From an uncultured Smithella sp. (lineage in GTDB: Bacteria; Desulfobacterota; Syntrophia; Syntrophales; Smithellaceae), in the NCBI GenBank assembly GCA_964646755.1, contig CAZYIE010000005.1, positions 1 through 61,939 of the forward strand: DNA of 61,939 bases. Reading direction: 5' to 3'. The translations under genes were made by a program, and so were the position numbers. This document shows positions 1-18,633 of the stretch, piece after piece. Each line of letters opens with the position of its first letter. Position 1 is the stretch's first letter. Under the pieces are notes generated by a model that was given only the letters and a program-made list of their open reading frames with translations, was not told the DNA's origin and ran no database searches.

Positions 1-97
1 GCACGACAGTGCGTGTGGCAATCTAAATATTATCAATGGCTTAAGAGATTGCTTCGCTCATCATATTCGCTCGCAAAGACATTGCGACACAGTCTCA
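1..97. repeat. Right part of a palindromic miniature element (GCAATCT...AGATTGC type) ending in the terminal repeat ATTGCGACACAGTCTC; left end lies outside the window
   Basis: Positions 1-52 match 57657-57708 at 51/52 nt, and both copies continue into ATTGCGACACAGTCTCA (here 81-97). Confidence 0.8.
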
Positions 98-148
98 TGC
101 GCCGGAACGACGTCATTTGGGACTTTATACAAGACCGTTAATGCGGAA

Positions 149-178
149 GGCTGAGGGCTGAAGACCGGCAGCCTAAAT
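149..178 (+). repeat. GGCTGAGGGCTGAAG...CAGCCTAAAT motif, copy 1
   Basis: The same 15-mer and 10-mer recur at 3694-3708 and 3734-3743. Confidence 0.6.
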
Positions 179-184
179 TATTTA

Positions 185-213
185 TTGACAATTGGACTGA
201 TTTATTTTAGTTT
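185..213 (+). promoter_or_regulatory. Sigma70-type promoter for the leader peptide and oxidoreductase operon
   Basis: TTGACA (185-190), 17-nt spacer, TAGTTT (208-213); GAGGA RBS at 229-233 before the leader ATG at 243. Confidence 0.65.
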
Positions 214-242
214 TCTTTAAAATTAATTGAGGATTTTGAGAG

Positions 243-341
243 ATGACCGGCGAATATAAGAGAAACATAGCAATTCTGTTTGAACTCCTGTTGTGCCTTC
301 TCCTTCTGGTGCTATCACTTTCCATCGCCCGTCGTTTTTAG
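243..341 (+). CDS. Leu-rich leader peptide, 32 aa (MTGEYKRNIAILFELLLCLLLLVLSLSIARRF); below the ORF-track length cutoff
   Basis: Translated by hand: ATG 243 to TAG 339-341, RBS 9 nt upstream, 10 Leu + 3 Ile + 1 Val; the stop codon lies inside the antiterminator arm. Confidence 0.75.
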   Translation: MTGEYKRNIAILFELLLCLLLLVLSLSIARRF

Positions 342-405
342 GAAAAACCGATAAAAAACAAAATCCTAAAGGCCATGGGCAGAAAAACCATGGCCTTTTT
401 ACTTT
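327..405 (+). promoter_or_regulatory. Transcription attenuator with antiterminator (327-343 : 364-380) and intrinsic terminator (368-378 : 388-398, then TTACTTT)
   Basis: The terminator stem AAAGGCCATGG/CCATGGCCTTT is a perfect 11-bp repeat. The alternative 16-bp stem (3 G-U pairs, one C/C mismatch) sequesters the terminator's whole 5' arm. Confidence 0.75.
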
Positions 406-454
406 AGTAAGTTAGAAACGCACTTATCCCGTTTATCGGGGCTAGGAAACTTTT

Positions 455-1021
455 ATGCATGAAATCATTTGGCACGGCAGAGGTGGTCAAGGGGTGGTCG
501 TTGCAGCACAAATTCTCGCAGAGGCTGCATACCTGCAAGGTTATAAGGGCGTAACATCCGCTCCGACTTTCGGCCCGGAACGGCGCGGCGCACCACTCAC
601 AGCATCGACGAGAATTTCGGATGCACCGCTGAGAACTTTTGCGCAGATTGAATTTGCTGATATTGCCGTTGTTCTCGATCCCTCCTTGTTGAAAGTTGTT
701 GATATTCAAGGTTCACTCAAAGACGGCGGCTTAATTATTATTAATTCAGATTTACAGCCGGAGAATTTTCACCTGAGAGCTGGATTAAAGATTGCAGTCG
801 TTGATGCAGTGAAAGTCGCCCTGAAATTTCACCTGCTGAAAGAAGCGGCGCCGGTTGTCAATACACCATTGTTGGGCGCATTTGCCCGGGCATCAGACAT
901 AGTTTCCCTCGAATATATTGAAAAAGGATTAAAAAAGAAATTGCCGCCGCAAGTAGTTGCGGCAAACAGTATGGCCTTAAACATGGCTTATGAAGAAACG
1001 ATAATTAAGAAAATAGGCTGA
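455..1021 (+). CDS. porC: 2-oxoacid:ferredoxin oxidoreductase gamma subunit
   Basis: N-terminal HGRGGQGVV and FGPERRGAP motifs; first gene of a gamma-delta-alpha-beta cluster. Confidence 0.9.
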   Translation: MHEIIWHGRGGQGVVVAAQILAEAAYLQGYKGVTSAPTFGPERRGAPLTASTRISDAPLRTFAQIEFADIAVVLDPSLLKVVDIQGSLKDGGLIIINSDLQPENFHLRAGLKIAVVDAVKVALKFHLLKEAAPVVNTPLLGAFARASDIVSLEYIEKGLKKKLPPQVVAANSMALNMAYEETIIKKIG

Positions 1022-1035
1022 AGAATTACTTTTTC

Positions 1036-1137
1036 TGTCATTCCGTCCTGCATGCGCCGGATGCTATTCCAGCGAAGCGCGACACGGAATCCAGTATTAT
1101 CGGCAAGTTCTGGATACCGGCTTTCGCCGGTATGACA
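1036..1137. repeat. Palindromic miniature element (GTCATTCCG...GGAATCCAG...CTGGATACCGGC-TTTC-GCCGGTATGAC type) between the gamma and delta genes
   Basis: TGTCAT/ATGACA ends; internal inverted pairs ATCCAG/CTGGAT (1089-1094/1110-1115) and ACCGGC/GCCGGT (1116-1131). Confidence 0.7.
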
Positions 1138-1175
1138 TCCTTGCTTTCGGTCTAGCAACCTAAAGGACTGACTAT

Positions 1176-1469
1176 ATGGAAAAGAAAGACAAGAATATTT
1201 CCGCCATGAGTACACCGGCAATAGGTGAAGCAGGATTTACCGGCGACTGGCGCGACATGAAACCGGTTATCGATCACGGCAAATGCATCCCTTCCGTAAA
1301 AAACAAGCCGGCCTGCTATTTGTGCTGGTTGTATTGTCCCGAAGGAGTAATCAAAACAGGCATTCCGGTGGAAATCGATATGGACTACTGCAAAGGTTGC
1401 GGGATTTGCGCGGAAGAATGTCCGGCCAAAGCAATCACCATGGTAAACGAGGGGGACGACAATGGCTGA
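1176..1469 (+). CDS. porD: 2-oxoacid:ferredoxin oxidoreductase delta subunit (2x[4Fe-4S] ferredoxin-like)
   Basis: CYLCWLYCP and CKGCGICAEECP cluster motifs; TGDWR motif; position in operon. Confidence 0.9.
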   Translation: MEKKDKNISAMSTPAIGEAGFTGDWRDMKPVIDHGKCIPSVKNKPACYLCWLYCPEGVIKTGIPVEIDMDYCKGCGICAEECPAKAITMVNEGDDNG

Positions 1470-2667
1470 AGTGCAAACAATGACCGGCAACACGGCCGCA
1501 GCTACAGCGGTGAAACTGTGCCAGGTTCAGGTAGTCTCTGCTTATCCGATAACACCGCAAACTTCTGTTACGGAAACACTGTCGCAATTCATCGAAAGCG
1601 GCCAGTTAAAGGCCGAATATGTCCGGGTGGAAAGCGAACATTCCGCCATGACGGTTTGCATTTCGGCCTCTACTGTAGGTGCCAGAGTATTCACTTCCAC
1701 CAGCTCGCATGGTTTGCTTTACATGCATGAGCAACTGCACTGGGCGGCGGGATCGCGTCTGCCCATCGTCATGTGCTGTGTGAATCGCGGCGTTGGAGCT
1801 CCGTGGTCAATATTTAATGATCAGCAGGATTCTATTTCTCAGCGTGATACCGGTTGGATTCAACTTTATTGCCGCGACAATCAGGAGATCATTGACACGG
1901 TTATTCAGGCTTATCGTATTGCCGAAGAAGTTTATGCACCCGTTATGGTTTGCTATGACGGCTTTGTTCTTTCCCATACAATGATGCCCGTTTGTCTGCC
2001 TGATGCCGAGCAGGTAAATTCTTTTCTGCCAGCCTACAAACCGCATACGATTCTTTCGGCCGATAATCCGCGCAATATCAACCCTGTTATTTTCCCGGGA
2101 ATGCGGAAAAATTCGGCGGGAATTCTTTGCGACGGCTATATGGAAATACGTTATAAACTGCAGGAAGCTCTGGAAAAAGCAAGAGATGTTATTGTCTCTA
2201 CCGGAATGAAATATTCAAAACTTACCGGCCGCGATTACAGTGGAATGTTGTGGCACTACAAAACCGATGATGCGGAGGTAATTTTAACCGGTATGGGATC
2301 CATTGCTACAGAAGCCACCGTTGCTGTTGACGAATTGCGACTCGCAGGCATCAAAGCCGGTGTTGTCGGAGTGCGTGTTTTCCGCCCGTTCCCCCGTACT
2401 GCGATCCAGCAGGCTTTGAAAAATGCCCACGCTATTATTGTTCTGGAAAAAGATATCAGTTATGGCTATGAAGGCGCGCTTTGCTCAGACATTAAAGCGG
2501 CGCTTTACGGAACCGGCATTAATCCACCACTGCATAATTTCATCGCCGGATTGGGCGGACGTGATGTAAAAGCGCGGGAAATATTCGAAGCAGTCCAGAC
2601 ATCACTTAACGAAATGAATAGTCAAAATGCACAAAATAAAACCATCTGGATAAACTGCCGTAAATAA
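1462..2667 (+). CDS. porA: 2-oxoacid:ferredoxin oxidoreductase alpha subunit
   Basis: AYPITPQT, VESEHSA, FRPFP and GLGGRD motifs. Confidence 0.93.
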   Translation: MAEVQTMTGNTAAATAVKLCQVQVVSAYPITPQTSVTETLSQFIESGQLKAEYVRVESEHSAMTVCISASTVGARVFTSTSSHGLLYMHEQLHWAAGSRLPIVMCCVNRGVGAPWSIFNDQQDSISQRDTGWIQLYCRDNQEIIDTVIQAYRIAEEVYAPVMVCYDGFVLSHTMMPVCLPDAEQVNSFLPAYKPHTILSADNPRNINPVIFPGMRKNSAGILCDGYMEIRYKLQEALEKARDVIVSTGMKYSKLTGRDYSGMLWHYKTDDAEVILTGMGSIATEATVAVDELRLAGIKAGVVGVRVFRPFPRTAIQQALKNAHAIIVLEKDISYGYEGALCSDIKAALYGTGINPPLHNFIAGLGGRDVKAREIFEAVQTSLNEMNSQNAQNKTIWINCRK

Positions 2668-2774
2668 ACCCCGTTAGAAATAACGGGAGTTTCGGAATTG
2701 CAGATGTCTGTATTATGCCGACATCTTGGAACCATTAAACATTCGAAAAGCGTTAGAAAAATTTCTAACGGGGT
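2668..2774. mobile_element. 107-bp MITE-like element with perfect 14-bp terminal inverted repeats, between the alpha and beta genes
   Basis: ACCCCGTTAGAAAT (2668-2681) and ATTTCTAACGGGGT (2761-2774); begins immediately after the porA stop codon; non-coding interior. Confidence 0.7.
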
Positions 2775-2789
2775 AAAAGGAAATGAGTC

Positions 2790-3689
2790 ATGCCGGAAAA
2801 TTTGTTTAAAGTTAATAAAGAAGAATATATGCTGCCGGGAAATAGATCCTGCCAGGGTTGTGGTCTCTCCCTGGCTTATCGCTATGCTCTCAAAGCGTTG
2901 CGCGAAAATACTATTTTGACGATTCCAGCCAGTTGCCTCACTGTTCTGCATGGTTTATATCCGACAACATCCGTAACTATTCCGTGCCTTAACTGCACTT
3001 TTGCCAGCACGGCAGCCTCTGCCGCCGGCCTCGTCGCCGGACTTGCCGCCACCGGCAGAGCGGATACTACAGTTGTGGCCTTTGCCGGTGACGGCGGGAC
3101 GTATGACATCGGCATCCAGGCGTTGAGCGGAGCAGCGGAAAGAGGGACCGATTTTATTTTTGTCTGCTATGATAACGAAGGCTATATGAACACGGGAACC
3201 CAGCGTTCGAGTGCTACCCCGATGGGGGCAATCACAACAACAACACCGATCCTGACCAAAGAACAAAACAAAAAAGATATGCTGAAAATTATGGAAGCTC
3301 ACGATATTGCTTATATTGCCACCACAACGCCTGCATATCCTATTGACCTCTACGATAAATTCGTCAAAGCCAAACGCATTAAGGGAACACGTTATATGCA
3401 AATTCATGTTCCCTGTCCGCCGGGCTGGGGTTTTCCACCGCGCGACACGGTAAAAATAGCGCGATTGGCTATCGAAACCGGTGTCTTTGTTCTCTTCGAA
3501 ATGGAAAATGGAAAATTCCGTTTTACCGGCCGCAGTAAGTCACTGGCGGAAAAAGGTAATCGCCTGCCTTTAATAAATTATATCGAACGACAGGATCGCT
3601 TTAAAAAAATTAGCGAAGAACAACTGCACAGTATGCAGAAATTTATCGATAACAAGTGGAATGAATACTTAAAAAAGGCTGAGAGCTAA
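2790..3689 (+). CDS. porB: 2-oxoacid:ferredoxin oxidoreductase beta subunit (TPP-binding)
   Basis: SCQGCG, GDGGTYDIG...YDNEGYMNTG TPP-binding motif, and PCPPGW. Confidence 0.93.
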   Translation: MPENLFKVNKEEYMLPGNRSCQGCGLSLAYRYALKALRENTILTIPASCLTVLHGLYPTTSVTIPCLNCTFASTAASAAGLVAGLAATGRADTTVVAFAGDGGTYDIGIQALSGAAERGTDFIFVCYDNEGYMNTGTQRSSATPMGAITTTTPILTKEQNKKDMLKIMEAHDIAYIATTTPAYPIDLYDKFVKAKRIKGTRYMQIHVPCPPGWGFPPRDTVKIARLAIETGVFVLFEMENGKFRFTGRSKSLAEKGNRLPLINYIERQDRFKKISEEQLHSMQKFIDNKWNEYLKKAES

Positions 3690-3693
3690 AAGC

Positions 3694-3743
3694 GGCTGAG
3701 GGCTGAAGGCCGAAGACTGTTAGGATGAACCTTCAGCCTAAAT
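3694..3743 (+). repeat. GGCTGAGGGCTGAAG...CAGCCTAAAT motif, copy 2, overlapping the waaA stop codon
   Basis: Exact matches to 149-163 and 169-178. Confidence 0.6.
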
Positions 3744-5025
3744 GCCTGTTTATCAACTCCGCATAGCGGGCGGCGGCACCCATATTGGCGGCAACAATGG
3801 CCTTACCTTGGGCGCCTCTTCGCTCCAGTTCTTCGGGATTTTCCAGCGCACTAACAATACCCTGCAGCAACTCTGCGGCATTGCGAATCGTTACTCCGGC
3901 ATCAACATTTTCCAGCAAGGTCTTTTCGTCAGTAAAATCTTCCATCGACGGACCGTAGAAAATTACTTTGCCCCAGGCTGCTGCCTCCAAAATGTTCTGG
4001 CCGCCTTTCGGCACCAGGCTTCCCCCGCAATAAACAACCTCTGCCAAAGAATATACTTTGAAGAGTTCGCCGATAACATCAACAATAATAATGCGCTCAC
4101 CCTGACGATTCTGACCACCCTTCATCGCGCTAACCTTAATGACATCGTCCAGAGCGTATTTATGTAAAAGCTCTAAAACATCTTTGGTCCTCTCAATGTG
4201 CCGCGGAATGAGAATTAATTTAAAATCAGGATATTTTTTTATAAGTTCCTGATAAACATTAATAATGACATCTTCTTCTCCCGAATGAGTGCTGCCGGCG
4301 ACAAAAAATCTTTCGTTTTCCCTTGCTCTAAGCAAAGCGGCAACTTCCTTGTGCAATTCCGGAGAAGCCAGCGCTGCCAGGGCATCATATTTGGAATTTC
4401 CCATTATTTTAATTTTCCCGTAATCGATCCCGATCTCCTTTACCCGCTCTGCATCAACAGCAGAAATCATCGCGGCGGCCGACAGATAATGCAGAATTCT
4501 CCGCCAGAAAAATCTCGTCAATTTATATTTGCCGTAAGAGCGCGGTGAAATCCTGCCGTTAACCATCAGTGCTTTAATATTGCGTTCATAACAGGTCTTG
4601 AGAAAATTAGGCCAGAGCTCAGTTTCGATCATTACAAAAACGTCCGGCTTCACGAGGCCAATCATTTTGCGCACCACACAAGGAATGTCCAGAGGAAAGT
4701 AAATGAAGGCAGCAACGTCTTTTACTAAACGCTGCGCCATTTCCTGCCCTGTTTCCGTACTAGTGGAAAAAATTATCTCTACATCCGGCCGCATCTGCTT
4801 TAACGAAGCTACAATGGGCGCGGCGGCGGTTACTTCACCTACAGATACTGCATGTATCCAGACATGCGGCGTATTTTTTAATTTTACCAATATTTGCGCC
4901 TGCCTGCCGCCAAGTTTGGGAATAAAACTTTTGCGGTATTTACCGGTAAAAGCTATTTTAAATAAAAAATAAGGCAAGATAACAAAACTGGCCGCAAACA
5001 AAATTGAATTATATAAAATATACAT
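3733..5025 (-). CDS. waaA: 3-deoxy-D-manno-octulosonic acid (Kdo) transferase
   Basis: N-terminal TM helix; WIHAVSVGE, ETELWPN, PRHIER and GGSLVPKGGQNILE motifs. Confidence 0.93.
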   Translation of the reverse strand: MYILYNSILFAASFVILPYFLFKIAFTGKYRKSFIPKLGGRQAQILVKLKNTPHVWIHAVSVGEVTAAAPIVASLKQMRPDVEIIFSTSTETGQEMAQRLVKDVAAFIYFPLDIPCVVRKMIGLVKPDVFVMIETELWPNFLKTCYERNIKALMVNGRISPRSYGKYKLTRFFWRRILHYLSAAAMISAVDAERVKEIGIDYGKIKIMGNSKYDALAALASPELHKEVAALLRARENERFFVAGSTHSGEEDVIINVYQELIKKYPDFKLILIPRHIERTKDVLELLHKYALDDVIKVSAMKGGQNRQGERIIIVDVIGELFKVYSLAEVVYCGGSLVPKGGQNILEAAAWGKVIFYGPSMEDFTDEKTLLENVDAGVTIRNAAELLQGIVSALENPEELERRGAQGKAIVAANMGAAARYAELINRHLG

Positions 5026-5053
5026 TTATATTTCTCTACTTTGTGCCTTACTC

Positions 5054-5380
5054 CTAAAAAAAAGAATTAAGGTGTTCTAAGATATCGCTTAAATATTTAT
5101 CGGCAACTCGATCAGCGAACTTTGCATTGCGAGAAGAATAGTCCAAGGCTTTTATTTGTTCCAACATTACACAACCGGCAACTTTTTTACATCCTATCAA
5201 CTCCATATGCAGCGGATAATCTTTTTTTTGAGACGTAATTGGACAAACTATAGCGAAACCGGTTAAGCGATTAAAGTCATCTTTACTGACTACTAATGCC
5301 GGTCGATGACCAGCTTGCTCGTGACCTTTTTGCGGATTAAAGTCAATCCAAATAACGTCACCTTGCTGGGGAATGTACAT
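5054..5380 (-). CDS. mazF: PemK/MazF-family toxin (endoribonuclease)
   Basis: QGDVIWIDFNPQKGHEQAGHRPALVVS and CPITSQ motifs; ATG overlaps the antitoxin stop (TAATG). Confidence 0.9.
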   Translation of the reverse strand: MYIPQQGDVIWIDFNPQKGHEQAGHRPALVVSKDDFNRLTGFAIVCPITSQKKDYPLHMELIGCKKVAGCVMLEQIKALDYSSRNAKFADRVADKYLSDILEHLNSFF

Positions 5381-5610
5381 TACCACTCCTCACGTCCTTT
5401 GGGACCATCCCAAAACTCTTCCGGTTTTTCACCGGTATAGCCGGAAAATAATGTTTCCAAATCATATTTTTTAGGTTTTTGAATGATAATTCTATTTCTA
5501 TCAGCAATTAGTTCCACCGATTCGTTAACCTGAATACCCACCATATCAATTAATTTTTTGGGTAGCCTGATTCCTTGACTCCCGCCCCAACTTTGAACTT
5601 TGGTAAACAT
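5380..5610 (-). CDS. mazE: AbrB/MazE-family antitoxin
   Basis: KVQSWGGSQGIRLPK AbrB-like N-terminus; C-terminal GPKGREEW; GGAGG RBS before ATG 5610. Confidence 0.88.
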   Translation of the reverse strand: MFTKVQSWGGSQGIRLPKKLIDMVGIQVNESVELIADRNRIIIQKPKKYDLETLFSGYTGEKPEEFWDGPKGREEW

Positions 5611-5628
5611 AGTCACACCTCCGGAAAA

Positions 5629-5657
5629 AGTATATACATATATAGACATATGGTCAA
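5629..5657 (-). promoter_or_regulatory. mazEF promoter with an overlapping GTATATAC palindrome (candidate autoregulatory operator)
   Basis: Minus strand TTGACC, 17 nt, TATACT; palindrome GTATATAC at 5630-5637. Confidence 0.7.
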
Positions 5658-5777
5658 GAAAAAGAATTGAAGAAGGCTGAATCCTTTTCTACCCGCTTTT
5701 TATCTTCTATGTGCAAGCTTTGCTTCCTGATACCAAGTTGCATTCAAAAGATAAAACAGCGTTTGGCCGACATTCCA

Positions 5778-5847
5778 CGCCGGGTCAGGTGACCCGGCCT
5801 ACAACTAAACATAAATCTGTGCTGTAGGCCGCGTGACCCACGCGGCG
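5778..5847. repeat. Inverted doublet of GTAG-type REP elements
   Basis: Minus strand GTAG-GCCGGGTCA-CC-TGACCCGGC (5779-5802) and plus strand GTAG-GCCGCGTG-ACC-CACGCGGC (5824-5846). Confidence 0.75.
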
Positions 5848-6002
5848 AAAGCTATTTGTTGGACCCTTTGTTGGTAATTTGCCTTGGATCCGACGAAGGC
5901 TTCGCTTGAACCTTTCACCTTTTTCCTCTTGTCCTCAGCCTTATTCAGATTGACAACGAGGCGACTTTAGTATAGTTCAGCTCTCAAAGGAGTAAAATTT
6001 CA

Positions 6003-6656
6003 ATGGCACTAATTGCCCCTTCTATCCTCTCAGCTGACGGCAGCAGGTTCGCCGAAGAAATTATCGCGGTGGAAAAAGCCGGAGCCGACTGGATTCACAT
6101 TGATGTAATGGACGGACATTTTGTCCCCAATATTACTCTGGGACCGGCAATCATAGCAGCGTTGAGAAAAACGACCAAACTCCCTTTTGATGTACACTTG
6201 ATGATTGAGAACCCCGAAGACTACATCGAATCCTTTGCAGAAGCCGGTGCCGACATCATCACCGTCCATGTGGAAGCGGCCAATCATCTCCATCGCACGA
6301 TTGATCTGATAAAAAAAAATGGCAAGAAAGCGGGTGTATCGTTGAATCCGGCAACCCCGCTGAACCAGATAGAAGACATCCTGCCCGACATTGATCTTTT
6401 GTTGATCATGACCGTAAACCCCGGCTTTGGCGGTCAGCAATTTATTAAAAGCACCTTGCCGAAAATTGCCCGGGCCAGCCAATTATTGAGCGCCTTACCC
6501 AATAAACCTTTATTGGAAGTGGATGGTGGAGTTAATTTACAAAACATAAATAGCATTGCCCAGGCCGGGGCCCAGGTATTGGTGGCCGGAAATTCTGTCT
6601 TCAGCACGTCGGATTACGTCAAAACAATTTCCGAACTGAAGGCCTCTATTGTTTAG
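6003..6656 (+). CDS. rpe: Ribulose-phosphate 3-epimerase
   Basis: IAPSILSAD, HIDVMDGHFVPN, DVHLM, MTVNPGFGGQ and EVDGG motifs. Confidence 0.97.
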   Translation: MALIAPSILSADGSRFAEEIIAVEKAGADWIHIDVMDGHFVPNITLGPAIIAALRKTTKLPFDVHLMIENPEDYIESFAEAGADIITVHVEAANHLHRTIDLIKKNGKKAGVSLNPATPLNQIEDILPDIDLLLIMTVNPGFGGQQFIKSTLPKIARASQLLSALPNKPLLEVDGGVNLQNINSIAQAGAQVLVAGNSVFSTSDYVKTISELKASIV

Positions 6657-8463
6657 TTTTATTTTTCTCTTCATTCAGTATCATTCGAAGTAATTGTCGC
6701 GCTTCTTCGGAATCGGGCTTGAGGTAAACAGCCGTTCGAAAATGTTTTATAGCTTCTTCCCGCTCGCCTTTTTGGATCAGCGCAATGCCAATATTGTAAT
6801 GCGCACCAAAATAATCTGGTTGTATTTTAAGCTCCTGCCGGTAGTGATAAATTGCCTCATCATATTTTTTATAGTGCATTTCCAAAATAATCCCTAACTT
6901 ATTGTGTGCATTAGCAAAATTAGGATTAACGCGTATTGTTTCGATAAAATATTTCTCCGCTTCTTCCATGTTTTTTTGATCTAAATATGCACTGGCTAAG
7001 TTATAATAAGCGTGGGAATAAGCAGGCTTAATTTTTATAGCATTTTTATAATTGTTAATTGCTTCTTCGTGTTTTCCTTCGGCATCCAGCGCAACACCCA
7101 AACTATCGTGCGCCCGATAGTTATTTTTTGTAGCTATCAGAGCATGATTAAACAGAGTAATGCTGTTTTTCCAGTAGCCACACTGTTGCCAGGTTAGCAC
7201 CATTAAAACAGTCAGCACAATTGCTGCTGTCGGAATTAAAATAATTTTACGCAGTTTTTCTCTAGGCAATAAGTAATCAGTCCCCCAAACCAGCATGATG
7301 GCAATGCCGATTGATGGAAGATAAGTGTAACGGTCAGCCATAGCCTGATCACCGGCTTGCATCAATCCAATAACAGGAAACAAAGTACCTAAATACCAAA
7401 GCCAGCCAATAGCTAAAAAAGGGATTTTCTTGGCCAGATAAACAACAGCAGCACTTATTGCCAATAGCACAGAAGCAGCTCCTAAAACCTGCCACAATGA
7501 AAAAGAATGCTCATAAGGATAAAAAACCGCCAGATCAACCGGCCAGAATGTTTTACCAAGATAAGATGCGTAAGATACAAGAGCGTTCATTATGCGATCG
7601 GCAAAAGGAACTGCTTGCAGCGAAGCCATATGATTATCGGCGCGTAATTGCCCAATCAGCATAATACCCAAAACTATTGACAGAAGGAAGAATGGCGCCT
7701 TTTCCCATAAAATGTTGCCGATCAATGGGGAGTTACTTTTGACCGGAATAGCTATCTTTTTCTCCAGGGAAGAGGTGGTTTTACTCTGCTTACTTTTTCT
7801 CCTGCCGGTTTTTTGATCAGCGACTGCTGGAGTATTCACTGGAGTTAGCTGTTTTTGCCAGCGGGCCAGAGGCCAATAATCAAGCAAAAGCAGAACACAA
7901 GGCAGTGTAACCAAGGTGGGTTTGGACATGAGGCTCAAAGCAAACAACAGCAGACAAAGACAATATTTAGCAACTTGAGGTTTTTCAACATAATAAGCAT
8001 ATGCATAGAGCGAGCCCATACCGAAAAACATGCTCAAAACATCCTTATGCTCAGCGGCCCAGGCGACTGATTCCACCCGCAAGGGATGAAGGGCAAAAAG
8101 TGCCGCCACAAAGGCGGAAGGCCAAAGACGTTTCGTGGTTTTGTTCAAAAAAAGGAATAAAAAGAGAACAGCGCCAATATGCAAAAGCAGGCTGACGAGG
8201 TGATAACCAGAAGCATTTACTCCAAACATCCGCCATTCCAGCATGATGGAAAGCCAGGTCAGGGGATGCCAGTACTCCAGCCGGGAATTGGTAAATGCCC
8301 ATTGAATACTCTCGGCTGTAATGCCTGATTGAACATAAATGTTTTCCGTGATTAATCTATTATCGTCAAAATTTACAAAGTCATTACCCAGAGTCCTGCC
8401 AAAGGCGATGAAAGAAGCTACTATTAAGAAAGCTATAATTAAATGCTTGTATTTATTATTCAT
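6646..8463 (-). CDS. TMTC-like multi-pass membrane protein (putative GT-C glycosyltransferase) with about 4 C-terminal TPRs, copy A
   Basis: NFDD acidic loop after TM1; WHPLT, HPLRVESVAW, SKPTLVTLP and ADRYTYLP motifs; TPR repeats. Start set at ATG 8463 by identity with copy B. Confidence 0.8.
   Translation of the reverse strand: MNNKYKHLIIAFLIVASFIAFGRTLGNDFVNFDDNRLITENIYVQSGITAESIQWAFTNSRLEYWHPLTWLSIMLEWRMFGVNASGYHLVSLLLHIGAVLFLFLFLNKTTKRLWPSAFVAALFALHPLRVESVAWAAEHKDVLSMFFGMGSLYAYAYYVEKPQVAKYCLCLLLFALSLMSKPTLVTLPCVLLLLDYWPLARWQKQLTPVNTPAVADQKTGRRKSKQSKTTSSLEKKIAIPVKSNSPLIGNILWEKAPFFLLSIVLGIMLIGQLRADNHMASLQAVPFADRIMNALVSYASYLGKTFWPVDLAVFYPYEHSFSLWQVLGAASVLLAISAAVVYLAKKIPFLAIGWLWYLGTLFPVIGLMQAGDQAMADRYTYLPSIGIAIMLVWGTDYLLPREKLRKIILIPTAAIVLTVLMVLTWQQCGYWKNSITLFNHALIATKNNYRAHDSLGVALDAEGKHEEAINNYKNAIKIKPAYSHAYYNLASAYLDQKNMEEAEKYFIETIRVNPNFANAHNKLGIILEMHYKKYDEAIYHYRQELKIQPDYFGAHYNIGIALIQKGEREEAIKHFRTAVYLKPDSEEARQLLRMILNEEKNKTKQ
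7118..8463. repeat. 1346-bp direct repeat, copy 1 (5' part of TPR gene A)
   Basis: Same sequence as 9053-10398 wherever compared by eye; four shadow ORFs in the track recur identically at offset 1935. Confidence 0.92.
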
Positions 8464-8490
8464 CTTCACCACTGCAACAATAAAAGATAG

Positions 8491-10398
8491 CTAACGCTTT
8501 TGCTTAATCGCCAAAGCTACCCGTAATATCTGGCGCGCTTCTTCATAGTCAGGCTTGAGGTAAACAGCCCGACGCAGATATTCGATAGCTTCTTCAATTT
8601 TACCTGTATTAGCCAAAGCCACACCCAAACTCATATAAATTCCGGGATCGTTTTGGTCTATTCGTAACGCCTGACGGAAATGATATAATGCTTCATCATG
8701 CTTAAGCTGTTTTCCTAAACATGTACCCAGATTAATGTGCGCACTCAAATAATCAGGATTAATACTTAAAGACTTGCGGTAATTTGTAATTGCCTCTTCA
8801 ATCTTTCCCTGCTTCTCAAGGGTAATGGCTAGGTTATAATAGGTATCACCTTTATTGGGATCAATTTTAATAGCAGCAAGATAATGAACAACAGCCTCCT
8901 CGTTTTTCCCTTGATCAGCCAATACTTTTCCCAGATCGAAATGAGCGTTATCGTGCTCGGGATAAATATTAATTGCCTTTTGATAATGGGCAATTGCTTC
9001 TTCCGAATTGCCTTGCTTTGAAAGGGCATCGGCTAAACAGTAATGGGCAAGGTAGTTATTTTTTGTAGCTATCAGAGCATGATTAAACAGAGTAATGCTG
9101 TTTTTCCAGTAGCCACACTGTTGCCAGGTTAGCACCATTAAAACAGTCAGCACAATTGCTGCTGTCGGAATTAAAATAATTTTACGCAGTTTTTCTCTAG
9201 GCAATAAGTAATCAGTCCCCCAAACCAGCATGATGGCAATGCCGATTGATGGAAGATAAGTGTAACGGTCAGCCATAGCCTGATCACCGGCTTGCATCAA
9301 TCCAATAACAGGAAACAAAGTACCTAAATACCAAAGCCAGCCAATAGCTAAAAAAGGGATTTTCTTGGCCAGATAAACAACAGCAGCACTTATTGCCAAT
9401 AGCACAGAAGCAGCTCCTAAAACCTGCCACAATGAAAAAGAATGCTCATAAGGATAAAAAACCGCCAGATCAACCGGCCAGAATGTTTTACCAAGATAAG
9501 ATGCGTAAGATACAAGAGCGTTCATTATGCGATCGGCAAAAGGAACTGCTTGCAGCGAAGCCATATGATTATCGGCGCGTAATTGCCCAATCAGCATAAT
9601 ACCCAAAACTATTGACAGAAGGAAGAATGGCGCCTTTTCCCATAAAATGTTGCCGATCAATGGGGAGTTACTTTTGACCGGAATAGCTATCTTTTTCTCC
9701 AGGGAAGAGGTGGTTTTACTCTGCTTACTTTTTCTCCTGCCGGTTTTTTGATCAGCGACTGCTGGAGTATTCACTGGAGTTAGCTGTTTTTGCCAGCGGG
9801 CCAGAGGCCAATAATCAAGCAAAAGCAGAACACAAGGCAGTGTAACCAAGGTGGGTTTGGACATGAGGCTCAAAGCAAACAACAGCAGACAAAGACAATA
9901 TTTAGCAACTTGAGGTTTTTCAACATAATAAGCATATGCATAGAGCGAGCCCATACCGAAAAACATGCTCAAAACATCCTTATGCTCAGCGGCCCAGGCG
10001 ACTGATTCCACCCGCAAGGGATGAAGGGCAAAAAGTGCCGCCACAAAGGCGGAAGGCCAAAGACGTTTCGTGGTTTTGTTCAAAAAAAGGAATAAAAAGA
10101 GAACAGCGCCAATATGCAAAAGCAGGCTGACGAGGTGATAACCAGAAGCATTTACTCCAAACATCCGCCATTCCAGCATGATGGAAAGCCAGGTCAGGGG
10201 ATGCCAGTACTCCAGCCGGGAATTGGTAAATGCCCATTGAATACTCTCGGCTGTAATGCCTGATTGAACATAAATGTTTTCCGTGATTAATCTATTATCG
10301 TCAAAATTTACAAAGTCATTACCCAGAGTCCTGCCAAAGGCGATGAAAGAAGCTACTATTAAGAAAGCTATAATTAAATGCTTGTATTTATTATTCAT
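8491..10398 (-). CDS. TMTC-like multi-pass membrane protein (putative GT-C glycosyltransferase) with about 5 C-terminal TPRs, copy B
   Basis: Identical to copy A up to ...ATKNNY, then a different TPR array. Confidence 0.8.
   Translation of the reverse strand: MNNKYKHLIIAFLIVASFIAFGRTLGNDFVNFDDNRLITENIYVQSGITAESIQWAFTNSRLEYWHPLTWLSIMLEWRMFGVNASGYHLVSLLLHIGAVLFLFLFLNKTTKRLWPSAFVAALFALHPLRVESVAWAAEHKDVLSMFFGMGSLYAYAYYVEKPQVAKYCLCLLLFALSLMSKPTLVTLPCVLLLLDYWPLARWQKQLTPVNTPAVADQKTGRRKSKQSKTTSSLEKKIAIPVKSNSPLIGNILWEKAPFFLLSIVLGIMLIGQLRADNHMASLQAVPFADRIMNALVSYASYLGKTFWPVDLAVFYPYEHSFSLWQVLGAASVLLAISAAVVYLAKKIPFLAIGWLWYLGTLFPVIGLMQAGDQAMADRYTYLPSIGIAIMLVWGTDYLLPREKLRKIILIPTAAIVLTVLMVLTWQQCGYWKNSITLFNHALIATKNNYLAHYCLADALSKQGNSEEAIAHYQKAINIYPEHDNAHFDLGKVLADQGKNEEAVVHYLAAIKIDPNKGDTYYNLAITLEKQGKIEEAITNYRKSLSINPDYLSAHINLGTCLGKQLKHDEALYHFRQALRIDQNDPGIYMSLGVALANTGKIEEAIEYLRRAVYLKPDYEEARQILRVALAIKQKR
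9053..10398. repeat. 1346-bp direct repeat, copy 2 (5' part of TPR gene B)
   Basis: Offset 1935 from copy 1; identity starts exactly at the ATG and ends at the first TPR. Confidence 0.92.
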
Positions 10399-10535
10399 TC
10401 TTTGAAAGGGTCCAATAAAACTTAACAGCGATAAAAATTTTGTTACTTCTATATTTATAACGGGAACAATCAGCTACAAAACAGCTTTTGGGGGAAAACT
10501 GGTAACTACATTGAACACCTTTGCCTTTGGAAAAT

Positions 10536-11093
10536 CTAACCACGTTTGCCGATGATCTGCGCCGGCACACCGGAAACAATGGTGTAATCCTCGACATCTT
10601 TCACGACAACGGCACCGGCTGCAACAATTGCCCCACGGCCAATTGTAATACCACCCGGAATACAAACATGGGCACCGATCCACACATCGTCGTTTATAAC
10701 AACAGGGGCCATAATATGATCCAAACTTGTCATCGGGCGATCCAATTGATTAAAATTGTGCCCTGAAGAATATATCGCGGTATGGGGGCCAATCATGACG
10801 CCATCACCGATTGTAATTCCACCCCGGCCGTCGATGATCGCTCCGGAGTTGACGGAGAAATTATGTCCTGCCTCAATGCCGTAAGTATGTGTAAAATAAA
10901 CACCTGGATAGATGAGAGCCAAAGATTTAATTTTTTTGAAAAGAAGTTTATAGAAACCGTAACGGACAAGCATGCCCTCCATGGAAGGAAGATTGCGAGT
11001 TATCCACCCGACATACTCCTCTAGCCAGATATGAAAAAGATGCCCGGAATACCGCCCCAGAAACCGCCCTATTGGACCGACTTGCTTTTCCAT
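10536..11093 (-). CDS. Hexapeptide-repeat (LbH) O-acyltransferase
   Basis: GGITIGDGVMIGP, VWIGAHVCIPGGITIGRGAIVAAGAVV and GVPA motifs typical of sugar O-acetyltransferases. Confidence 0.85.
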   Translation of the reverse strand: MEKQVGPIGRFLGRYSGHLFHIWLEEYVGWITRNLPSMEGMLVRYGFYKLLFKKIKSLALIYPGVYFTHTYGIEAGHNFSVNSGAIIDGRGGITIGDGVMIGPHTAIYSSGHNFNQLDRPMTSLDHIMAPVVINDDVWIGAHVCIPGGITIGRGAIVAAGAVVVKDVEDYTIVSGVPAQIIGKRG

Positions 11094-11127: not shown

Positions 11128-11865
11128 TCATTTTTTAACTAATACGATTTTCGAAAACATAGCACAACTATCCATCCAACGGGCAAGCAATCTCTCCAGA
11201 AAATGCCAAACCCCGAAGGTCCAGCCCGGCTGCAAACTGATTAGCGATACTCCGCCGGACAAAAGATAGCGAAACGGCATCATCGGCGCAATACTGCCGA
11301 TATGCAATTGAGGAAATTCATTTTCAAACTGCTTTCTGTCCCGGCAAAATACAATCCAGGGCAGGGCTCCATTAGCCCCGGAAAGCGGACCTTCACTTGC
11401 AAACTCCCACTGTCTGGAGTCAGGCCGGAATGGTTCATGATGAAACCTAGAATAGACAAAGTGCGACCATGATGTCACCCATGGTTCCACCATTACCACT
11501 ACGCCTCCGGGACGAAGACACCGTACTGCCTCGCACAGGAATAGCCGGGGCTTGGGCAGATGATGAAACACATCCGTCATTACGATTGCTTTGAGTGATC
11601 CGTCGGCAAATGGTAAATGTCCGGCATCAAGGACAATATCGATATCCAAAAGATAAAAGCATTCCGATGTGATAACACCCGGCGCGAAGTTTTTAAAAAA
11701 CCCGGCACCTGCACCTATCTCCAGAACAGAACCGCTTCCATCAGGGATGGCACTGACCAAAGCTTGATACCATTCTTCATAGATGCGGCGAAGAAATTTT
11801 TTTTCTTGAATTATACGCCGCCTCAGATAAACGATTTCCGGTGAATCGATATTAATGCCTTGCAT
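11128..11865 (-). CDS. Class I SAM-dependent methyltransferase
   Basis: VLEIGAGAG motif I; LPFADGSL; DVFHH; LRPGG. Confidence 0.85.
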   Translation of the reverse strand: MQGINIDSPEIVYLRRRIIQEKKFLRRIYEEWYQALVSAIPDGSGSVLEIGAGAGFFKNFAPGVITSECFYLLDIDIVLDAGHLPFADGSLKAIVMTDVFHHLPKPRLFLCEAVRCLRPGGVVVMVEPWVTSWSHFVYSRFHHEPFRPDSRQWEFASEGPLSGANGALPWIVFCRDRKQFENEFPQLHIGSIAPMMPFRYLLSGGVSLISLQPGWTFGVWHFLERLLARWMDSCAMFSKIVLVKK

Positions 11866-11905
11866 CAAGGGATGTACAAATAGTGATTTAATTATGGTAT
11901 TTCCT

Positions 11906-13360
11906 TCAAATAAATTTTATTCTTAACGCGGCAAAGCAGACCATGCGCAGCAGCAGCCAACCGTGCTTCCAACGGCTTATATTGGTTGTTCCGTAAGTGC
12001 GTTCCCGGTAACGAATCGGAACTTCACTGATTTTGAGATTCAATTTGGCAGCGCCAAATAAAAGGTCGAAATCGCCAAAAGGATCAAAGTCGCCAAAATA
12101 CGATCTATTAGCAGCAATCCTTTCATAATCCTTTTTCCAAAGCACCTTAGTGCCGCATAAAGTATCCTTAATCGGCTGTCCCAGCAACCAGGAAAAGGCC
12201 AAACTGAAAAACTTGTTTCCCAGAAGGTTAAAAAAGCGCATCGCTTCTTTTTCCATGGGATATACTAAGCGCACTCCGTTGACGAATTCGGCTTTACCGC
12301 TGGCCAGAACATCATAAAATCTGGGCAGGTCTTCCGGCGGCACTGTAAGATCAGCATCCAGAATCATCAGAATATCGCCGGTAGCATGTTGGAAACCCAG
12401 GCGAACTGCATCGCCTTTCCCCTGGCCGGTCTGGCGCAGAAGTTTAGATAAACGCTGGGGATTATCGGCCATTGCCTTTTCAATAACTTCATAAGTGTTA
12501 TCCGTTGATCCGCCTTCAACGAAGATTAACTCCGTACCACCCCCCATTTCCGGCACTTCGGCAAATATTTTTTGTATATTCCCGGCTTCATTGCGCGCGG
12601 GGATAATAACAGATACCTTAGGCACTTGCGCTGCGGCTGCAACCATCGAACATGGCCGGGCTATGATGATGTTAGTTAATGCAAACCAACGGAAAGGCCA
12701 GATTTTGACAATAAATCGATTTAAAAGGGAATCCACCAGTGGTGTACGGAGCGGCCAGACTATTTCCTCCCAGTGCCTGATGACTTCAAAATCAGCGAGT
12801 GAGAGCAAACCGCTTACGTCTTCCACAGTAAGCCAATTTTGGGGCAACAATGGTTTGGCCAGACCCAACTTGCGGATAATCCTGAATGGTACTTCCCATA
12901 ACCTGCTGTACGTCGTGATAATGACCCTTGAGCCGGATGTGGCAAGAGGCCTTATATTCTGCAATACTGTCTGCACATCCCATAAATCATTAACCAGATC
13001 AGATAGAATAATAAAATCAAAATGCTCTTTTAAATCAATTTCCTGCGCGTCGGCTTGTATAAAGTGCAAATCAGGATGGCTGTTCCTGGCAAGCTCTATC
13101 ATCTGTGGAGAAAAATCTACACCGACACCATACGAAGGCGCAAGAGAGGCAAGCAAATCGCCCTGTTCGCAGCCTACCTCCATTACCCGCTGTCCGGAAG
13201 GAACAACAAATTTTAATACATCATGCAAGCGCTTGTGGTAATAATTGCTGATCCCCTGCCATTTATCTATGCTTCCGGCGATGCTGTTCCAATGAGATAT
13301 GCGCTTTTTTTGATAAATCGCATAGTCTGATTTGGTTTTATTGAAATCTGTTTCGATCAA
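11906..13360 (-). CDS. Fusion of an N-terminal SAM-dependent methyltransferase and a C-terminal family-2 glycosyltransferase (polyprenol-phosphate-sugar synthase-like)
   Basis: VMEVGCEQG and GVDFS (MTase); IIPARNEAGNI, GKGDA, ILDADL and RYRERTYGTTN (DPM1-like GT2). TTG start is uncertain. Confidence 0.82.
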   Translation of the reverse strand: MIETDFNKTKSDYAIYQKKRISHWNSIAGSIDKWQGISNYYHKRLHDVLKFVVPSGQRVMEVGCEQGDLLASLAPSYGVGVDFSPQMIELARNSHPDLHFIQADAQEIDLKEHFDFIILSDLVNDLWDVQTVLQNIRPLATSGSRVIITTYSRLWEVPFRIIRKLGLAKPLLPQNWLTVEDVSGLLSLADFEVIRHWEEIVWPLRTPLVDSLLNRFIVKIWPFRWFALTNIIIARPCSMVAAAAQVPKVSVIIPARNEAGNIQKIFAEVPEMGGGTELIFVEGGSTDNTYEVIEKAMADNPQRLSKLLRQTGQGKGDAVRLGFQHATGDILMILDADLTVPPEDLPRFYDVLASGKAEFVNGVRLVYPMEKEAMRFFNLLGNKFFSLAFSWLLGQPIKDTLCGTKVLWKKDYERIAANRSYFGDFDPFGDFDLLFGAAKLNLKISEVPIRYRERTYGTTNISRWKHGWLLLRMVCFAALRIKFI

Positions 13361-16763: not shown

Positions 16764-17288
16764 ATGCATATAATAATTGATGGCTACAATTTAATTCGCC
16801 AATCGGATTCCCTGCGCCACCACGAAAAACAAAGCTTGGAAGCAGGCCGCCGGGCTCTAATTAACAAGCTGGCTGAATACAAAAGGAAAAAAGAACATAA
16901 GATTACCGTCGTTTTTGACGGATGGGAGACAGGCTCGGCCAGTGAGGAACGTGACCGGCAGGGTAATATCAACGTCATTTACTCATGCCGCGGCGAAAAA
17001 GCAGATGAGGTGATTAAAAGATTAGCAGATGCCAGTTCGGAAGAAACAATAATAATTTCCTCGGATCGGGAAATTGCTTCTTATGTAACGAGGCACGGTA
17101 AAACCGCACTTTCGTCCAGCGAATTTGAAATGCTGATGCACAAAGCCCTTACTGAATCAGCGATTAGCGACTTTGGCGAAGGGAAAGAAGCTGATGATGA
17201 AAACGATTATCATTCCTCCAAAAAGGGACCGGCAAAAAGATTGCCGCGTGCCCGCAGGCATGCCCAAACAAAAATTAAGAAACTTTAG
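16764..17288 (+). CDS. YacP/Rae1-like NYN-domain ribonuclease
   Basis: IIIDGYNL, VVFDG, ADEVI and SSDRE acidic NYN motifs. Confidence 0.85.
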   Translation: MHIIIDGYNLIRQSDSLRHHEKQSLEAGRRALINKLAEYKRKKEHKITVVFDGWETGSASEERDRQGNINVIYSCRGEKADEVIKRLADASSEETIIISSDREIASYVTRHGKTALSSSEFEMLMHKALTESAISDFGEGKEADDENDYHSSKKGPAKRLPRARRHAQTKIKKL

Positions 17289-18633
17289 TGCAGGCTTTAA
17301 TCAGGAAATTTTCCAGTAACAGCTGCGGATCTCTGGCCGAAGATTTGAACCCGCGATCAATTTCGAGCAAGTCATCGAGATAGCCTATCAGCACCGGATA
17401 AGAGAAACGTCCGCAATTGCGCAGAGCATTAAAAATAACAAAAGGATGCTTGCCCGTCAGAAAATCTTTCGGCAGCTCTTTTGCAGCAGTCAACTCACTC
17501 AATGCGGGATGAATATTCTTCGAAAACCAGCCATATTCCATACTGCTACTGAATTTCGGCAATTTCCCGGAGTTGACTAAAATTTTTGCGTGCAGCAAAA
17601 AACGGATTTCTCTGACGATCATTGTGAGAATCATCAAGTGGTGCAACCCTTGATCCAATAAAGCCTTCAGGGCATGGAGTGCGGCCAGTTGATTTTTTTC
17701 ACTTAAGGCTGTTGTTAAGTCAAAAATCGAATCTTCTCTGGTTTTGCCGACTACCTCCTCGACATCCCCCTCCTCAATCACCGGACGATCACCGACAAAA
17801 AATACCAGCTTTTCCATTTCCATAATTGATCGGCGCAATTCAAATCCTGTTTTCTTCCCCAAACTAACCCAGGCTGCCGGCGACAGCTTTTTTTTATAAC
17901 GCTCGAGTAATTTTTGAATTTGCTTTTGGAGAACTTCTTTTTGTGCTGTTTCTCCCTTAGCCGTGCTAAAATTCAGGACAATTCCCTGCTGGGCTATCAT
18001 CTTGTATATTTTTCTTCTTTTATCGACGGTTTCCGCAGTGAAGATCAAGCAGTTACCAGTGGGCAAGCCATTTTGGAAAATATTTTCCAATCGTTCTATT
18101 TTATCTGTCCCGGATAATTCAGCAAGACCCAAATTTGAGCAAATTTCCAATATTCGGGGAAGCCACTTTTCACGGTCATCGCCTGCATCCCCGGAAATAA
18201 CTTTGCTCCACTGCCCGTCGGAAATACGCTGCCAACCGTTTTGGCGTAAATCTTCCAGAGAAAATCCTGCCAGTTTAAGAAAAGTTAAAAAATATTTCGC
18301 GGCTTTGGATGGATTATCATCAATATTATTACGTATTTTTTGCACCAGATCAGCCAGATTCTCACTGGAATGAAAAATTGTTGTATTGCGAACAACCACA
18401 ACTTTTCTGCCGCCTAAAAGGGAAGGGGTTAAAATGTATTCAATCAGGCTGTCAACATCAGTATTTTCGCCGTCAAGGTAAAACAGACCAAAATCACGGT
18501 CTTGGGGGGGGAGAATTAATTCTAAAATTTGCTGGAGGGTCTCATTAATTAAATATTCTTCTTCGCCGCAAAGAAGATAACAAGGGGCGATAACACCTTT
18601 TTTCAAATCAGCAATAACTTTTTCTAAAGTCAT
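17275..18633 (-). CDS. holA: DNA polymerase III delta subunit (long form)
   Basis: YLLCGEEEYL, PSLLGGRKVVVV, EMEKL and SIFDL motifs; C-terminal 'LLENFL'. Confidence 0.8.
   Translation of the reverse strand: MTLEKVIADLKKGVIAPCYLLCGEEEYLINETLQQILELILPPQDRDFGLFYLDGENTDVDSLIEYILTPSLLGGRKVVVVRNTTIFHSSENLADLVQKIRNNIDDNPSKAAKYFLTFLKLAGFSLEDLRQNGWQRISDGQWSKVISGDAGDDREKWLPRILEICSNLGLAELSGTDKIERLENIFQNGLPTGNCLIFTAETVDKRRKIYKMIAQQGIVLNFSTAKGETAQKEVLQKQIQKLLERYKKKLSPAAWVSLGKKTGFELRRSIMEMEKLVFFVGDRPVIEEGDVEEVVGKTREDSIFDLTTALSEKNQLAALHALKALLDQGLHHLMILTMIVREIRFLLHAKILVNSGKLPKFSSSMEYGWFSKNIHPALSELTAAKELPKDFLTGKHPFVIFNALRNCGRFSYPVLIGYLDDLLEIDRGFKSSARDPQLLLENFLIKACTKVS

Follow-up and report, generated by a model that had tools for sequence, protein, structure and literature searches.

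The window, by which we mean the whole analysed stretch of 61,939 nucleotides (contig CAZYIE010000005.1, assembly GCA_964646755.1, from an uncultured Smithella sp.), carries on its minus strand two neighbouring genes for putative membrane glycosyltransferases, which share an identical front half and end in different arrays of tetratricopeptide repeats (TPRs). Gene A (10398..8491, minus strand, 635 aa) consists of a GT-C-type membrane domain and 5 TPRs, and gene B (8463..6646, minus strand, 605 aa) of a GT-C-type membrane domain and 4 TPRs. A spacer of 27 nt (8464..8490, minus strand) leads from the stop of gene A to the ATG of gene B and contains the sequence GGTGA, a possible ribosome-binding site, 4 nt upstream of this ATG. 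The start of gene B was taken at the ATG at 8463 (the GTG at 8472 in the list of open reading frames, ORFs, is a mechanical extension). On the 5' side of gene A lies an intergenic region of 137 nt (10399..10535, minus strand), which shows no similarity to the sequence upstream of gene B. In what follows, X denotes public sequencing runs, L denotes DNA stretches or contigs that carry the locus or its relatives, and P denotes homologous proteins.

In a base-by-base comparison, positions 7118-8463 and 9053-10398, which are offset by 1935 bases, agree without interruption over 1346 bases; the second-longest identical run at this offset has 12 bases. The first-pass annotation of this DNA had described these two segments as apparently identical from the ATG to the first TPR; the exact alignment confirms this for 1346/1346 bases and fixes both limits. 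On the coding strand, the 5' edge is the A of the ATG (10398 in gene A and 8463 in gene B), with the first base 5' of the ATG already unlike between the two genes, and the 3' edge is the second base of codon 449, a tyrosine (Tyr449) encoded by TAC in gene A and TAT in gene B. The edges are sharp and the identity covers every synonymous site. Copy 1 of the repeat (9053..10398, minus strand) comprises codons 1-448 of gene A plus 2 nt, that is, the entire GT-C-type membrane domain with the DD motif at residues 33-34. Copy 2 (7118..8463, minus strand) comprises the same codons of gene B plus 2 nt and is covered by independent contigs (X1 at 7118-8714, L001 and L002). Additional paralogs with the same 5' block, which the annotation had proposed to look for, are missing from the window: self-BLAST found no third copy there, and the family profile finds only the two ORFs.

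After the block the two proteins diverge. TPR array A (8491..9052, minus strand) comprises 5 TPRs, a capping helix and the stop of gene A, and TPR array B (6646..7117, minus strand) comprises 4 TPRs, a capping helix and the stop of gene B, both defined by Pfam TPR matches in a 34-residue register. The tails are identical at 74 of 162 positions (46%), an extra 33-residue repeat in gene A explains the 5 versus 4 TPRs, and both proteins have AVYLKPD.EEARQ.LR as their C-terminal end, so that the earlier description of about 4 versus 5 TPRs with similar ends holds. Over 150 aa, the tail of gene B shares 75% identity with that of the homologue P0052, and the latter is 39% identical to the tail of gene A. 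The nearest matches of the A tail are P0002, P0003, P0007 and P0014 (60-63%). The 3' end of gene B overlaps the convergent rpe gene (ribulose-phosphate 3-epimerase) by 11 nt (6646-6656), and the same tail-to-tail overlap is observed in L001 and L002 and, for P0052, in L085.

Independent assemblies of the tandem arrangement

The public runs holding the locus are low-depth metagenomes available as Logan contigs, and the evidence described here comes from assembled contigs, not reads. All four junctions of the arrangement are found in such contigs with zero differences from the window: TPR array B to the block (X1, 6690-7147), the block through the spacer to the end of gene A (X1, 7118-8714; X2, 8434-8574), TPR array A to the block (X1, 8700-9082; X2, 8831-9500; X3, 8973-10076), and the block to the region 5' of gene A (X2, 10369-10484). 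The depth over the repeat, a check that had been proposed with the first description, is 7.9 for the X1 repeat contig versus 4.4 and 5.1 for the two TPR arrays (~1.7x the flanks). Two further contigs extend over most of the pair. L001 (JGI 3300020048) shows 1 mismatch in 9057 bases against window positions 51-9107, and L002 (ENA) is 100% identical to positions 5833-9145. Both hold the complete gene B, the spacer and the terminal part of gene A, and break 54-92 bases into the other copy, which is the usual behaviour of short-read assemblers at a true repeat. In total, the spacer junction from gene A to gene B is present in X1, X2, X4 (with strain-level single-nucleotide polymorphisms), X6, L001, L002 and L167.

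In the assembly graph, the block (N) has one outside entry and one exit, through TPR array B to rpe. The order upstream-N-(TPR_A-N)n-TPR_B-rpe is therefore forced, and the contig depth is consistent with n = 1. The tandem layout as an assembly artefact is thus largely excluded. That the two copies are identical to the last base is likely, on the evidence of contigs only.

A few contigs deviate from the window or are less informative. The 1592-base contig L167 (ENA ERZ27262922 k141_255273) runs from the end of TPR array A through the spacer and the block to the start of TPR array A and is not collinear with the window. It has A7 in place of A6 (window equivalent 9056-9061 / 7121-7126), three bases inside the TPR-side end of the block, and the resulting frameshift leads to a stop after ..ATKK and to a 447-aa enzyme without TPRs (P0122). 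This contig could be an assembly error or an arbitrary assembler path, an A-A-B amplification allele, or a real frameshift variant. For diverged strains, the contigs of X4, X5, X6 and X10 cover the two copies thinly, and one contig fits both copies. The X5 microbial-mat contig (window 10350-10405) agrees with the gene over its initial 49 nt and over the 7 nt before them, and then passes into sequence that the window does not contain; it points to a relative whose upstream neighbour is different. The JGI metagenome collection yielded no exact 50-mer match, the source strain being absent from that collection, and no RNA runs holding the locus were found.

Recurrence in relatives and origin of the identity

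The two genes belong to a very large family. A search with the N-terminal membrane domain (N-domain) by itself gives 73,683 cluster representatives at E <= 1e-3, of which 17,888 reach E <= 1e-30. In one-genome-per-species data, relatives are encoded on at least 554 stretches, the best 80 of which come almost all from metagenome-assembled genomes (MAGs) of Smithella, Smithellaceae or Syntrophaceae. Tandem arrays reach 9 genes (L040; 7 in L035), and the Smithella MAG CAYMWM has at least 19 copies over seven contigs. In 91 adjacent same-strand pairs of family genes elsewhere, the median nucleotide identity of the N-domains is 59.4%, and the median third-position identity at conserved residues is 54.5%. 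Selection at the protein level therefore cannot explain an identity of 1346 bases; it was ruled out as the cause since third positions are only ~54% identical in the other pairs.

The identity at synonymous sites implies a very recent recombination event. The N-domains of genes A and B are 100% identical, and the nearest other proteins are at 72-83%. A recent tandem duplication of the whole gene was rejected, as it needs zero synonymous change in 448 codons beside 54% amino acid change over the 160 that follow. What fits is gene conversion, or a partial replacement of equivalent effect, because the tails are only 46% identical and the B tail is 75% identical to that of the single-copy P0052. 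In L085, the gene order is 3HCDH, ACAD, NMO, a methyltransferase-GT2 fusion (MT-GT2), a methyltransferase, a single GT-C/TPR gene (P0052) and rpe; the flanking genes are 74-91% identical to those of the window, and the shared N-domain is 72% identical to that of P0052. The gene of P0002 follows a methyltransferase gene and precedes another paralog, an order that matches the window. Since B-type and A-type tails both occur in other genomes, the TPR types predate the identical block, and homogenisation is thus favoured over duplication. The reading that we prefer, with a probability of roughly 70%, is a recent gene conversion (concerted evolution) within a greatly expanded, tandemly arrayed family, its mechanism being judged from sequence comparison. 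The first-pass annotation had offered very recent duplication or gene conversion; the very recent recombination stands, on the synonymous sites, and the whole-gene duplication does not, given the tails at 46%.

Gene conversion among bacterial paralogs is established (PMC6053082, PMC12046097). At this locus, a RecA-type, non-reciprocal homologous recombination between the paralogs would have made the membrane (catalytic) domains identical, with a tract extending to the limits of usable homology on both sides. The 5' limit of the tract at the start codon would reflect the lack of relationship between the sequences further upstream, and its 3' limit at the first TPR the much greater divergence of the TPR-coding DNA. 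The TPR arrays would be older, type-specific modules that were not overwritten.

Comparable blocks recur in relatives, and among them the window pair marks the extreme. Exact 5' blocks of 0.9-1.3 kb joined to diverged TPRs are present in four other Smithellaceae/Syntrophaceae genomes (L040, L010/L011, L070 and L126). In L040, an exact block of 1340 bp extends from ATG+29 to codon 456, where the identity drops abruptly. In L010/L011, an exact block of 1323 bp starts at ATG-130 in genes lying 20 kb apart on a 2.78-Mb contig, and the identity then decays through the TPRs. The 998-bp exact block of L126 ends at GYWKN in the last membrane helix, and the 894-bp exact block of L070 (15189-16082 / 17151-18044) ends in the middle of the domain. 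Including the window, the 5' ends of the five blocks are at ATG-172, ATG-130, ATG+0, ATG+29 and ~ATG+240, and in 3/5 of them the 3' end lies within 20 codons of the junction between membrane domain and TPRs. Such clustering of 3' ends is expected from diverged TPR DNA blocking heteroduplex extension, and equally from selection against overwriting of the TPRs. Shorter tracts of 90-97% identity occur in L162, L144, L098 and L113. L040 and L010/L011 belong to MAGs with MFD names and lie on contigs of 0.57 and 2.78 Mb; the names and the megabase-scale contigs suggest an origin in Microflora Danica, whose genomes are Nanopore long-read assemblies (PMC12313526).

Mosaics are also visible at the protein level in pairs from the same contig or the same species. 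P0002 and P0004 reach ~100% identity between residues ~60 and ~240, with 106 aa as the longest exact run, and P0053 and P0073 have 168 identical residues in common. P0018 and P0067, encoded on the same 18.7-kb contig, show the inverse pattern, with N-domains 30-70% identical and TPR tails 87-93% identical. Homogenisation is therefore not confined to the catalytic domain. The first description had proposed a constant catalytic domain combined with exchangeable TPR modules; the identical core with differing TPRs is what is seen, but exchangeability and a varying target range are not borne out, as the TPR types are conserved like orthologues and in P0018/P0067 it is the tails that became alike. 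The deletion of 1935 bp by recombination between the copies, also proposed there, is mechanistically reasonable, being a valid prediction for any such direct repeat.

Two of the relatives show further features. Positions 2461-22115 of L040 (CAWKNI010000008.1, a 574-kb contig) hold nine head-to-tail GT-C/TPR paralogs, whose neighbouring N-domains are 82-99% identical, and this array looks like a gradient of homogenisation along its length. In L070 (14847-15324), ~150 nt of the block coincide exactly with the 3' end of the TPR tail of the first gene and now lie upstream of this gene in an unrelated ORF; this piece is a footprint of a copied segment that crossed a gene boundary.

Several observations speak against gene conversion as the origin of the pair. 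For the shared N-domain, the identity is 72% with the B-type orthologue P0052 and 83% with the A-type P0002, at differing species distances, which leaves the direction of transfer ambiguous. In the closer relatives L092 (5899-7154) and L100 (10621-11875), compared with window positions 6003-11093, an acetyltransferase gene (84-85% identical) directly adjoins rpe (83-84%) with no GT-C/TPR gene between them, and the paralogs lie upstream of MT-GT2; the locus was rearranged between species, and the existence of the A-B pair before the identity is therefore not proven. A tract that ends exactly at the ATG leaves almost no homology anchor, and a partial duplication or replacement fits it equally well. 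As regards the contigs, they lose rare variants, bubble-popping could have erased a few real differences between the copies, and the depth support is clear in X1 only, X2 and X3 being too shallow. Because the locus is not static, as seen in L092 and L100, a partial duplication that made gene A from the front half of gene B is a reasonable minority reading, which we regard as rather unlikely. The 1346-bp front half, probably that of gene B, resident beside rpe, would have been copied once and joined to the TPR segment of another paralog. Such a chimeric birth agrees with the start of the identity exactly at the ATG without flanking homology, with the sole B-type gene at this position in L085, with the A-type genes that lie upstream of MT-GT2 and not beside B in several relatives, and with the L070 block, which carries 150 nt of a neighbour's 3' end into an unrelated context. 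However, it requires an illegitimate join exactly in frame at TPR1, the contig of the closest relative already has the A-type P0002 between methyltransferase and another paralog as in the window, and the recurrent blocks with their differing end points fit homology-driven exchange better.

Somewhat less probable still is an artefact, in which the assembler would have merged variants into a single consensus or placed the units in a wrong number or order. Short-read assemblers fail at a repeat of 1.3 kb that is exact or nearly so, L001 and L002 break just inside it, the path of L167 from the end of TPR array A over N to its start is at odds with the window, and the full 635-aa gene A is found only in the 112-kb source contig. 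Against this, all four junctions are observed independently, the repeat contigs of X1-X3 are unbroken and variant-free, the X1 depth is raised over the repeat, the graph logic forces the order, and megabase contigs of related genomes show the same pattern; the collapsed repeat, named as a real alternative in the first-pass annotation, is thereby largely excluded as far as the arrangement is concerned, on junctions from independent runs and assemblies. Very improbable, finally, is a programmed variation of the kind of shufflons, DGRs or silent-cassette systems, in which the direct repeats would switch or reshuffle TPR modules at high frequency to change the target range. A direct repeat of 1346 bp is indeed a substrate for RecA-dependent deletion or amplification, L167 may represent an amplified A-A-B variant and has its A7 frameshift just before the TPRs, and evolution experiments with E. 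coli have produced chimeric genes through deletions that fuse paralogs (PMC13626634). Yet recombinase, reverse transcriptase and invertible element are absent from the operon (the flanking genes and the other scanned ORFs, which are part of the ORFs of the window, include no recombinase or reverse transcriptase and are metabolic or housekeeping genes plus MazEF), both genes have start codons and full length, unlike silent cassettes, a deletion could not be reversed, TPR types are kept between species like ordinary orthologues, and no deletion joint is seen among the assembled contigs.

Predicted enzyme class and gene neighbourhood

Hydropathy and the helices of the AlphaFold2 model predict 11 transmembrane (TM) helices in the N-domain. 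Two aspartates of the first outer loop, D33 and D34, do not vary in alignments of 29 and of 15 homologues. The loop 200-250 is rich in lysine and arginine (11 K+R) and was assigned to the inside, which in this predicted topology places the TPRs on the non-cytoplasmic side; beyond helix 7 comes a long outer loop, which contains an amphipathic helix. In Pfam, the two window proteins reach 23.8 and 23.6 bits with PMT_2, under the cut-off of 26.1 bits, and the window N-domain alone does not match PMT_2. This profile is matched by 12/15 homologues, with a best E of 5.7e-8. A separate model of the N-domain was used for the fold search because that with the full-length model was swamped by TPR proteins. 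With this model (pLDDT 63, pTM 0.72), GT-C enzymes account for 10 of the top 11 Foldseek matches at a probability of 0.99-1.00, among them Pmt4 (TMq 0.51, E 1.5e-3), STT3, AglB, PglB and DPY19; both the model quality and the Foldseek E-values are modest. Single-sequence and profile searches of the N-domain against all PDB chains returned nothing meaningful. Genes A and B are thus predicted to encode bacterial GT-C membrane glycosyltransferases with a periplasmic C-terminal TPR domain. They would transfer a sugar from a polyprenyl-phosphate donor, as suggested by the adjacent GT2 gene. A literature search for this GT-C/TPR family in Smithella found nothing.

The closest architectural counterparts are the eukaryotic TMTC1-4, which are protein O-mannosyltransferases of the GT-C/PMT clan (PMC7801869). 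Like them, the window proteins are predicted to have 11 TM helices, with the DD motif in outer loop 1, a long loop on the cytoplasmic side between TM6 and TM7 and another long one on the outside between TM7 and TM8, the latter with an amphipathic helix; (D/E)RxxY stands between TM9 and TM10, and the C-terminal TPR array is placed on the non-cytoplasmic side. In respect to the TMTC motifs M1-M7 (PMC7801869), which were compared by eye with the invariant columns of the family, without alignment to TMTC sequences, M1 (DD) is present, M7 (ERxxY) is present as D377-R378-x-x-Y381, M3 corresponds to K140-D141 (HKD here, RKD in most homologues), and M4 is partial (K181...T186, without E). M2 (SHKSYRP) is replaced by W65-H66-P67-L68-T69 and M5 (DW) by F314-Y315. 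Human TMTCs match DUF1736 at E < 1e-30 (PMC7801869), whereas this profile (PF08409) has no match in the window proteins at E <= 0.01, nor in the 15 homologues at E <= 1. Unlike TMTC1-4, then, the window genes lack the DUF1736 profile and do not conserve M2 and M5, and since the protein is bacterial, the donor would be on undecaprenyl phosphate and not on dolichol. The term 'TMTC-like', under which the genes had first been described, is apt for the architecture (topology, DD, (D/E)RxxY and TPR tail) but does not extend to family membership. With PMT, ArnT and STT3/PglB, the genes share the predicted fold of the N-domain, the weak PMT_2 match and an adjacent GT2 of the polyprenyl-phosphate-sugar-synthase type; they differ in having no sequence match to solved structures and in carrying TPRs in place of a MIR or a periplasmic alpha/beta domain.

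Upstream of gene A, three further genes on the minus strand are of interest. A hexapeptide-repeat O-acetyltransferase of the sugar/polysaccharide type (10536..11093, Pfam Hexapep) has NCBIfam matches to acetyltransferases of the maltose, galactoside and WcaF type, all under the family cut-offs. Further upstream lie a methyltransferase dependent on S-adenosylmethionine (SAM) (11128..11868, Pfam Methyltransf_11/23/25), which adjoins the MT-GT2 gene in relatives too, and MT-GT2 itself (11906..13360, Pfam Glycos_transf_2 and Methyltransf). The best NCBIfam matches of the GT2 part are AglJ, DPhHxTase (Dol-P-hexose transferase) and ArnC, all under the cut-off. The methyltransferase part of MT-GT2 is of the class I SAM type, and a protein of 484-486 aa is conserved beside GT-C/TPR genes in many relatives; this conservation suggests a methylated lipid-linked donor. 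The MT-GT2 and methyltransferase genes together accompany GT-C/TPR paralogs in relatives.

MT-GT2 is the likely maker of the lipid-linked donor, judging from its domains. Together with the methyltransferase and the acetyltransferase, it would make a polyprenyl-phosphate-linked, possibly methylated or acetylated sugar, which both enzymes would transfer on the periplasmic side, each to acceptors of its own that its TPR domain selects. The locus is likely to be a periplasmic glycosylation pathway in which the TPRs would bind the acceptor. On the other side of the pair, a MazE/MazF (PemK) toxin-antitoxin pair (5054-5649, minus strand) lies between rpe and a Kdo transferase gene and is absent at the matching position in the syntenic L085 and L100. 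Promoter and terminator scans gave results at chance level, and a search against Rfam returned only a distant tRNA.

Parallels and significance

Concerted evolution by gene conversion between bacterial paralogs is known from tufA/tufB and from the Helicobacter bab genes. It can be long-lasting in prokaryotes (PMC6053082), and cases of gene conversion have been described for M. tuberculosis PE/PPE and related loci (PMC12046097, PMC13061034, PMC1762029). The window pair resembles such cases in four respects: partial identity of paralogs, which are more similar to each other than to their orthologues; sharp borders of the tract; recurrence within a multigene family; and poor visibility in short-read assemblies. 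It differs from them in that the tract is a whole domain of a two-domain enzyme, the presumed substrate-binding domain keeping its old type-specific sequence, and in concerning an uncharacterised family of uncultured Syntrophales. With Rhs/CDI systems, the pair shares a constant region before variable tandem C-termini and the capacity of homologous recombination to change the expressed C-terminus; however, both window genes are complete with their own starts, and orphan cassettes, toxins and immunity genes are missing. The process itself is ordinary and already known in bacterial paralogs, and the locus is a new, unusually clean example and no new kind of system.

What merits attention is the domain-bounded pattern, its recurrence, the expansion of the family in Smithellaceae and the blind spots of assembly. 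The pair offers, in an uncultured anaerobe, a clean and checkable instance of probable gene conversion ending at a domain boundary. Where gene families contain exact kilobase repeats, short-read metagenome assemblies systematically break off or join wrongly (L001, L002, L167), and such recombination events stay hidden because of this assembly bias at exact repeats. The very large, uncharacterised bacterial family to which the pair belongs is built like the animal TMTC O-mannosyltransferases and has undergone a massive expansion in Smithellaceae. If it is the TPR tails that choose the acceptors, gene pairs of this kind are natural domain-swap experiments, with the same core and different tails.

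A broader proposal, which we put forward tentatively and consider somewhat doubtful, is that domain-bounded concerted evolution is the rule in the family: the GT-C core would be homogenised in cis and matched to one donor made by MT-GT2, and the TPR arrays would be kept distinct by selection. If this is true, these bacteria would have a periplasmic protein glycosylation with one enzyme core and many acceptor adaptors, its repertoire growing and shrinking by recombination at the core.

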